Source: a virus (Monodnaviria > Loebvirae > Hofneiviricota > Faserviricetes > Tubulavirales > Inoviridae). From it: DNA of 5,541 nt. How positions within the stretch are numbered: position 1 is the first letter of the stretch; the number at the start of each line of letters is the position of its first letter. The translations under genes and the position numbers were made by a program. Below are positions 4,472-4,819 of this stretch, in pieces. Under the pieces are notes generated by a model. The model had not been told where the DNA came from. It searched no databases and worked only from the letters and a program-made list of their open reading frames with translations. Where the stretch lies: IMG/VR virus record IMGVR_UViG_2585427969_000012; one strand, written 5' to 3'.

Positions 4472-4720
4472 ATGTCTGTAAAAAATAAGGCGCGTGACCG
4501 ACTTCCCGGTGGCCGCCTTAAGTCTTATCGTCGTGTAGGTTCACATTTTGCCAGTTGTGCCAGATGGTTTGATAAATCGCCGTCCTGGTATCGCAATATG
4601 ATGATGACCAGGCCTGAGCGTCGTGAAGTCAGAAGGCTTCTCAATCAGGTAATGCGTGGTCATGATGCTGACGGCATTGCTTTTCCGGTCAGTCATCGTC
4701 CGTTTGTTTATTGGTGGTGA
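4472..4720 (+). CDS. Hypothetical small basic protein (82 aa) in the dif-proximal module; function unknown, possibly DNA-binding, regulatory or recombination accessory
   Basis: Good SD (GAGGA, 6-nt spacer) before ATG 4472. The product is Arg/Lys-rich (MSVKNKARDRLPGGRLKSYRRVGSHF...RPERREVRRLLNQVMRGHDADG...). GC content is about 50 percent, against about 35-40 percent for the structural genes upstream. Confidence 0.5.
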   Translation: MSVKNKARDRLPGGRLKSYRRVGSHFASCARWFDKSPSWYRNMMMTRPERREVRRLLNQVMRGHDADGIAFPVSHRPFVYWW

Positions 4721-4743
4721 ATTTCGTACGCACGAAATTTCAC
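4717..4743 (+). other. Stem-loop directly after the stop of ORF 4472-4720
   Basis: AATTTCGT (4720-4727) pairs perfectly with ACGAAATT (4732-4739) around a 4-nt loop ACGC, and extends to GTG/CAC with one bulge. No U-tract follows, so it is not a canonical intrinsic terminator. Confidence 0.35.
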
Positions 4744-4803
4744 GCATAAACACCAGACAAAAAATCGTTAACTGTCTGTTTTGAAAGATAACGCCGGTCA
4801 GTG

Positions 4804-4819
4804 ACAAAACTTGTTTTGT
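4804..4819. repeat. Inverted repeat ACAAAAC-TT-GTTTTGT (operator-like)
   Basis: 7-bp perfect inverted arms with a 2-bp spacer. A second inverted repeat CAGACA(4754-4759)...TGTCTG(4773-4778) lies just upstream. Both are in the non-coding stretch 4721-4903. Confidence 0.3.

Follow-up and report, generated by a model that had tools for sequence, protein, structure and literature searches.

A conserved plus-strand hairpin pair of a CUS-1/YpfΦ-type filamentous prophage as a candidate complementary-strand origin, with a homologue of one hairpin in F-like plasmids

The stretch of DNA analyzed here, IMG/VR record IMGVR_UViG_2585427969_000012 (hereafter the window, with a length of 5,541 nucleotides, nt), is the right end of an inovirus prophage of the CUS-1/YpfΦ type from Escherichia coli, integrated at dif. 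Its genes are arranged in the order pIII, pVI, Zot/pI, secretin/pIV, a small basic open reading frame (ORF) termed orf82, a group of hairpins, a further small ORF termed orf65, and dif (Table 1). The hairpins between orf82 and orf65 are the subject of this report. An earlier examination of the letters, referred to as the sequence-only reading, described a cluster of three palindromic elements at 4717-4819 and offered packaging hairpins, origin hairpins or operator sites as explanations. The elements themselves are real, but the limits of the proposed cluster bisect a longer conserved hairpin, H3, and leave out a second one, H4, separated from H3 by one base (4833, 4835). Only the third of the listed elements belongs to conserved H3, and the hairpins formed by the other two, H1 and H2, are not conserved. 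The stretch was described as lacking a credible ORF, and this description holds: the two ORFs of 49 amino acids (aa) with which it overlaps match no Pfam or PHROG family, and the loop of H3 carries 1-nt indels between homologues, which is evidence of a non-coding sequence. The region was also said to follow gene IV, and it is indeed an intergenic region of the inovirus type downstream of that gene, except that the conserved orf82 intervenes before the hairpins. Here, the structure, distribution and surroundings of H3/H4 are examined, and it is argued that the pair may be the complementary-strand origin of the phage.

Table 1. Positions of the hairpins, genes and other elements considered in this report; positions are those of the window unless another record is named.
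Feature	Positions	Strand	Remarks
Long, GC-rich hairpin within the 3'-terminal part of gene IV (secretin)	4311-4375	+	-23.5 kcal/mol, compared with -19.5 kcal/mol on the - strand
Hairpin including the orf82 Shine-Dalgarno sequence TAGAGGA	4437-4466	+	Just 5' of orf82; terminator-like in a consensus scan
orf82 (small basic ORF)	4472-4720	+	YPO2280a homologue
H1, AT-rich hairpin	4705-4752	+	Inner stem 4720-4727/4732-4739, outer stem 4705-4716/4741-4752
H2, weak 6-bp stem CAGACA/TGTCTG around GTTAAC	4754-4778	+	-3.2 kcal/mol
H3, imperfect hairpin of ~20 bp, AACGCCGGTCAGTGACAAAAC-TT-GTTTTGTTGCTGTCCGGGGTT	4790-4833	+	44 nt, conserved; core of the candidate complementary-strand origin
H4, lower stem GCC-AA-GCCG ... 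CGGC-GC-GGC, apex variable	4835-4884	+	Directly 3' of H3
orf65	4904-5095	+	YPO2281 homologue, phrog_6642; window copy frameshifted by a 1-nt deletion
Region B, three hairpins (5099-5120, 5135-5189, 5201-5219)	5099-5219	+	Before dif
dif/attR, right prophage end	5252-5277	+	Window copy lacks 2 nt of the XerC arm
Plus-origin candidate hairpin pair	L001 2155-2215		Beyond the window in the same phage, flanked by the repressor gene and an accessory gene
Plasmid H3 homologues	F plasmid NC_002483 89607-89661; L120 4602-4651; L124 5038-5092		traT-traD

The significance of the hairpins was judged by folding them as single-stranded DNA (ssDNA) and comparing the result with dinucleotide shuffles. Folded in this way, the + strand of 4700-4900 reaches -37 kcal/mol (z = -3.57), a value that none of 200 shuffles equaled, and the - strand gives z = -2.97. 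The palindrome ACAAAAC-TT-GTTTTGT at 4804-4819, which had been taken as an element of its own, is present but is the mere apex of H3, the arms of which span 21 nt each (4790-4810 and 4813-4833). By itself H3 folds at -14.2 kcal/mol on the + strand (z = -5.69) and at -10.3 kcal/mol on the - strand, and a covariance model of H3 scores 78.4 bits on the + strand and 35.0 bits on the - strand. The difference in stability of ~4 kcal/mol is due to tandem T·G/G·T pairs. In relatives, designated here by L numbers, these wobbles become Watson-Crick pairs, and on the - strand they are mostly A·C mismatches, indicating that the + strand is the one that folds.

Covariation supports both stems. Across 18 distinct H3 sequences, 91.9% of cells are paired and six pairs have changed on both sides; the covariation score of 0.191 compares with 0.099 for shuffled alignments (0 of 500 reach the observed value) and with at most 0.05 for slid controls. 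In L053 and L061, the flanks of H3 are conserved and its entire upper stem has been exchanged for another, unrelated sequence that is again complementary; the stem is perfect over 20 bp in L107, and the loop occurs as CTTG, CTCG, CATG or CGTG. Two Pantoea copies differ in the quality of their pairing: the stem of L060 is perfectly paired (CCGGGCAG/CTGCCCGG), and that of L005 (CCGGGGAG/CTGTCCGG) contains one wobble and one mismatch. For the lower stem of H4 (13 sequences), 83.7% of cells are paired, the basal G-C pair changes to A-T, and the AA/GC internal loop is paired as TG/CA or AG/CT in L059, L077 and L053. At the nucleotide level, H3 is 87-100% identical in four divergent relatives, versus 76-82% for the neighboring genes. 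Related phages therefore retain the stems of both H3 and H4 through compensatory changes, the check that had been suggested for them.

The remaining two elements of the original cluster were located exactly where they had been described. The 8-bp perfect stem-loop at 4720-4739 consists of AATTTCGT (4720-4727) and ACGAAATT (4732-4739) and begins on the final base of the orf82 stop codon; as part of H1, it contributes to a hairpin that alone folds at -11.2 kcal/mol (z = -4.25). H1 is restricted to CUS-1/Ypf, L007/L082, L057 and L059, and most other relatives carry a different hairpin, H0 (TTTTTAGCCGCTAAAA), instead. The repeats CAGACA (4754-4759) and TGTCTG (4773-4778) flank GTTAAC (4767-4772) as stated, and the hairpin that they form, H2, is unconvincing when considered alone (z = -2.0, with 13 of 200 shuffles as good). 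The sequence of H2 is not conserved; a short hairpin is usually found in the same place in relatives (CAGATA/TATTTG in L007, CATAAC/GTTATG in L057, AATAATCA/TGATTATT in L059, and TTACGA/TCGTAA in L033). H1 and H2 are thus accessory hairpins that are specific to particular lineages.

Relatives of the phage were gathered via orf82 and via pII, and further matches were obtained from a search of plasmid records with the hairpin region. H3/H4 are present in every phage that encodes a pII (PF05144/PF05155) at least 85% identical to that of this phage and whose contig covers the region, and they co-occur with pV proteins of 93-100% identity. The carriers include phages of the CUS-1/Ypf type, the Brenneria type and the ‘UPΦ’ type (PMC7307601). 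Structural genes of the UPΦ type are IKe-like, with undetectable similarity to those of the window, and in UPΦ phages of the L104 type H3/H4 are kept in the absence of orf82, between two other cargo genes. Phages that combine Ypf-like structural genes and orf82 with another Rep lack H3/H4 (Xenorhabdus L090, which has a Phage_GPA Rep, and L085). To judge from these comparisons, H3/H4 follow the replication module and not the morphogenesis module. A block made up of orf82/H3-H4, attP, the repressor, pII and pV is 85-99% common to Ypf-like and IKe-like phages (L078-L081 versus L104-L117 and the window), with a left recombination boundary ~50 nt upstream of orf82. This shows that phages of the Ypf and IKe types exchange their replication and intergenic module as a unit. 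Separately, in Pantoea chromosomes (L005, L060 and L087-L089), orf82, H0 and H3 lie beside dif with no phage genes upstream, an arrangement that is a relic of the right end of a prophage in which orf82 has stayed intact.

The search of plasmid records yielded matches to H3 at 86-89% identity. Between traT and traD, at least 5000 records of F-like plasmids carry a homologue of H3, which is unannotated and present as a single copy; an apparent second site per plasmid is the palindrome matching itself. The phage and plasmid hairpins agree in their base (AACGCCGG...CCGGGGTTGG), in length and in one G·T pair, and they differ in the upper stem through changes that are compensatory. In NC_002483, the strand that corresponds to the phage + strand is the bottom one. 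It serves as template for ssb and psiB, and from the arrangement of oriT and the leading region it would be the transferred strand (T-strand). The T-strand orientation of the plasmid homologue scores 53.9 bits versus 26.1 bits for the opposite one and folds at -15.0 versus -11.2 kcal/mol; its advantage in folding is 4-7 kcal/mol. This favored orientation is antisense to the tra operon. When the H3 model was run on F region 50001-99159, it identified a single copy, the one that separates traT from traD; the leading region contained none. Some other plasmid matches are phage remnants. A Yersinia frederiksenii plasmid (L123 6999-7052) carries, 8 nt past the stop codon of the antitoxin gene hicB, an H3 copy with an F-type 3' flank; toxin-antitoxin genes abound in this accessory region. 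Since phage and plasmid DNA both enter cells in single-stranded form, a signal for priming or processing would fit both settings, and a packaging role is argued against. It may be suggested tentatively, as a possibility that is less probable than not, that H3 represents a widespread and hitherto unannotated family of short hairpin signals on the ssDNA of dif-integrating filamentous phages (the packaged + strand) and F-like plasmids (the transferred strand) that prime or process complementary-strand synthesis.

Other structures of the phage have candidate roles of their own. A scan of + strand folds across the whole phage unit ranks the hairpin at 4311-4375 first, followed by attP, H3/H4 and the plus-origin candidate. 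At its apex, the 4311-4375 hairpin has a motif, CCCCGCAGCGnnGCGAGGAG, that recurs in Xenorhabdus phages on lower stems that are unrelated in sequence and yet complementary, and for this reason the hairpin is considered to follow the Ypf-type morphogenesis genes. It occupies the position of the annotated morphogenetic signals of IKe and I2-2 and is the best candidate for the packaging signal of this phage, likely that of the Ypf/Zot-type morphogenesis module. Phages of the UPΦ type carry an IKe-like morphogenetic signal after gene IV. In Xenorhabdus L013 (3281-3420) and L017, both with Ypf-like structural genes, the sequence that immediately follows orf82 is clearly homologous to hairpins B and C, the minus-strand origin of f1/IKe.

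The plus-origin candidate consists of AACGTGCAGT-GTTGGTAAT-ACTGCACGTT followed by GTCTCA-TTCC-TGAGAC and resembles hairpins D and E of f1/IKe (GAGTCCAC-GTTCTTTAATA-GTGGACTC, then TTGTTCC-AAAC-TGGAACAA) in architecture and in part of the loop. It is kept in all of the pII relatives, its second hairpin with a compensatory variant, and it is the sole intergenic segment in common with phage I2-2, the gene II protein of which is 58% identical. This pair is likely the plus-strand origin, placed as in ig-1 of CTXφ. H3 was considered for the same function on account of the similarity of its CTTG loop to the nick motif of superfamily I Rep proteins (bioRxiv 10.1101/2023.12.30.573655) and was ruled out, since the loop varies and the f1-like nick hairpin pair lies elsewhere; no loop like that of the f1-like nick-loop hairpin is present in H3/H4. 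With respect to integration, most E. coli matches to the window stop at ~5277-5280, and a tandem prophage in strain SF-173 provides a junction in which two inverted dif-like sites fold as a forked attP hairpin of the CTX type. Such a forked hairpin has been proposed for YpfΦ (PMC4266046). The hairpin region was also ruled out as attP, given that dif-like sites are located at 5252-5277 and at the tandem junction and none is located in 4700-4900.

Complete E. coli genomes contain prophages that are 99.6% identical to the window. In clean copies, the order is three reverse-strand accessory genes, a helix-turn-helix repressor (also on the reverse strand), pII (Rep), pV, small coat genes, pIII-like, pVI (DUF2523), Zot/pI, secretin/pIV, the 82-aa basic ORF, the 65-aa ORF and dif. 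Relative to reference prophages, the window contains ~18 single-base indels, none of which falls within 4700-4890. These indels disrupt the pIII-like gene, the secretin gene and orf65 and delete 2 nt of dif, which suggests either a decaying prophage or homopolymer errors of long-read assembly. DNA searches of phage collections with the window returned zero matches, and an Rfam scan of the window returned a single match of chance level, to the histone stem-loop family.

The small gene that precedes the hairpins, orf82, is real and conserved, with 34 homologues in Enterobacterales among which substitutions are conservative. No Pfam family matches it, a sequence search of the PDB was empty, and its AlphaFold model is poor (predicted local distance difference test score, pLDDT, of 53) and unfit for a structure search. 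YPO2280a and YPO2281, the homologues of orf82 and orf65, have been described as two small ORFs for which a function is not predictable (PMC4266046). The sequence of the hairpin at 4437-4466 is 77-100% conserved at nearly all orf82 loci, including those of Xenorhabdus, irrespective of the type of Rep and structural module, and this hairpin may control the translation of orf82. By comparison, orf65 is variable in relatives, being missing, shortened or substituted. Region B, downstream of orf65, is common to some UPΦ-type phages and is not found in L082, L083 or phages of the L104 type, which have the same Rep family; as an essential origin, it was ruled out on these grounds. A strong sigma-70-like site (TTGACA-16-TACTAT, 5218-5191) lies inside region B on the - strand and is directed antisense into orf65.

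In f1, the minus-strand origin is composed of the intergenic hairpins B and C and is primed by host RNA polymerase. H3/H4 are proposed here to be the complementary (minus)-strand origin of the CUS-1/YpfΦ-type phages, as a non-homologous replacement of the Ff type, with a probability of about 50%. The proposal follows from position and elimination. The order packaging signal, H3/H4, plus origin and gene II is the Ff/IKe order; the slot after orf82 holds a true minus-strand origin in L013/L017; and H3/H4 are the sole remaining conserved, covarying hairpins with a + strand bias that have no other assignment, and it is for these reasons that this role is preferred. From these observations, a priming function is inferred. 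If so, the + strand, after infection or after release from rolling-circle replication, would be coated with SSB save at the stable H3/H4 hairpins, RNA polymerase, primase or the PriA primosome of the host would recognize them and make a primer, and DNA polymerase III would extend that primer and convert the single strand to the double-stranded replicative form. Of the three roles that the sequence-only reading had put forward for its elements, that of an origin is thus the favored one, packaging is disfavored and the operator is unsupported.

A number of observations weigh against this assignment. H3/H4 have no sequence similarity to hairpins B and C of f1/IKe. In blastn comparisons of the f1, IKe and I2-2 intergenic regions with CUS-1, UPΦ-type and Brenneria-type genomes, no match to a minus-strand origin was obtained, L013 being the only genome with one, and the H3 covariance model had no match in f1, IKe or I2-2. 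Manual inspection of the alignments revealed neither a conserved mimic of -35/-10 boxes nor a CTG site for primase in H3/H4; a consensus scan of 4700-4900 detected no sigma-70 site, and the GTGACA in the 5' arm of H3 is -35-like, with no conserved -10 partner by inspection. Since it is host enzymes that a minus-strand origin needs, co-inheritance with pII and pV may be mere physical linkage. Both hairpins are on the sense strand with a gene on either side, in many cases right after a stop codon, so that a role at the level of mRNA fits much of the same evidence, including the G·U pairs that are normal in RNA. In the Pantoea relics, orf82 and H3 are retained without phage genes, where a phage origin would be useless. 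Lastly, the complement of the plasmid H3 follows traT, and a terminator is reported for that location.

The mRNA-level role just mentioned is the main rival, and it is considered unlikely. It would have H3/H4 and H0/H1 fold in the + sense mRNA and serve as 3'-end stabilizers, processing sites or attenuators that keep apart the expression of the cargo genes to their left and right. Such a role would account for hairpins that stand on the coding strand between ORFs, for the L104-type arrangement, in which the upstream ORF has its stop codon where H3 begins and the next start codon comes ~15 nt past the end of H4, and for the close succession of hicB and H3 on the Y. frederiksenii plasmid. However, the flanking genes vary among the phages while H3/H4 stay 87-100% identical, the orientation favored in F-like plasmids would place the structure antisense to the tra operon, Rfam returned no match, and no U-tract follows H3/H4 on the + strand in any relative, nor is there a consistent one on the - strand (3' flanks GGGGTTGGCC on the + strand and variously GTTATCTTTC, GTTTACGAT or GTTAAGATAAA on the - strand). 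An intrinsic terminator was ruled out separately, as a scan of 4700-4900 found none on either strand. Roles on ssDNA other than priming are distinctly less probable than the mRNA-level one. In phage and plasmid alike, the hairpins could act as a roadblock or timing device for complementary-strand synthesis, as a site free of SSB or pV, or as a ssDNA promoter, and the + strand and T-strand orientations that speak for an origin would speak equally for any of these; single-stranded promoter hairpins of F are indeed replication roadblocks (bioRxiv 10.64898/2026.01.09.698686). Nevertheless, inspection of the alignments found no -35/-10 pair conserved in the stems, and such roles would leave unexplained a phage that is otherwise without a minus-strand origin.

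It is very unlikely that H3 and/or H4 serve as a packaging signal, standing out from the pV coat of the + strand so that the assembly machinery recognizes them and begins to build the virion. For integrative inoviruses, packaging signals have been described as unknown in large part and as taking, in some cases, the form of short hairpins close to the origin (bioRxiv 10.1101/2023.12.30.573655), a description compatible with + strand hairpins located downstream of gene IV, as in Ff and in the annotations of IKe and I2-2, and accompanied by a near-invariant pV. This role is difficult to reconcile with the distribution of the pair: the same H3/H4 occur with structural and assembly genes of the Ypf and IKe types that have no detectable similarity to each other, they are missing from phages with Ypf-like structural genes and a different Rep, and H3 homologues reside in conjugative plasmids, which are not packaged. 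Moreover, the IKe-type phages retain their own IKe-like signal after gene IV, and the stronger hairpin at 4311-4375 accompanies the Ypf-type morphogenesis module across different Rep types. Least probable is the idea of duplex operators to which the phage repressor, or some other regulator that is a dimer, would bind. The apex of H3, H1 and the GTTAAC core are near-perfect palindromes of operator-like size, but none of their half-sites is found a second time in the phage genome, the regulatory region of the repressor and pII included, the sequences of H3/H4 change while pairing is kept (to the extent that L053 has swapped the whole H3 stem), H3/H4 persist in phages with a different repressor or no detectable one, and the asymmetry between strands would have no meaning for the binding of duplex DNA.

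The fitness of Yersinia pestis and of extra-intestinal E. coli has been linked to YpfΦ and CUS-1. In the literature examined, no cis-acting site of either phage besides attP was found. The assignments made above result in a candidate map of four elements, namely a packaging signal in the end of gene IV, a minus-strand origin at H3/H4, attP, and an f1-like plus-strand origin. The occurrence of the same hairpin on the transferred strand of plasmids suggests a common route by which incoming ssDNA is converted to duplex, which for conjugation is an open question. If H3 does act in both phages and plasmids as a site at which complementary-strand synthesis is primed or processed, it would constitute a new class of single-strand initiation signal, passed between phages and plasmids whose DNA is single-stranded on entry into the cell.

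Among known systems, the minus-strand origin of Ff/IKe likewise consists of two adjacent, imperfect + strand hairpins in non-coding DNA between gene IV with its packaging signal and the plus-strand origin. It differs in that orf82 separates H3/H4 from gene IV and in that cargo genes, attP and a reverse-strand module are interposed between H3/H4 and the plus-strand origin. Hairpin A of Ff, IKe and I2-2 is similarly a + strand hairpin downstream of gene IV; H3, in contrast, begins 407 nt past the gene IV stop codon, beyond orf82. The attP of CTXφ offers a parallel, in that both phages integrate at dif, occur as tandem prophages and present host enzymes with a folded + strand structure, whereas the attP of the present phage (5252-5277 plus the left end) is ~430 nt downstream of the hairpins. 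Compared with the single-strand initiation sequences (ssi) and Frpo-type ssDNA promoters of conjugative plasmids, which have been described in the leading region, the plasmid H3 lies between traT and traD, and at ~44 nt H3 is much shorter than Frpo and is without -35/-10 boxes. H3 nonetheless resembles both in being a hairpin that would function on DNA that arrives in the cell single-stranded, with its plasmid homologue on the strand that is transferred.

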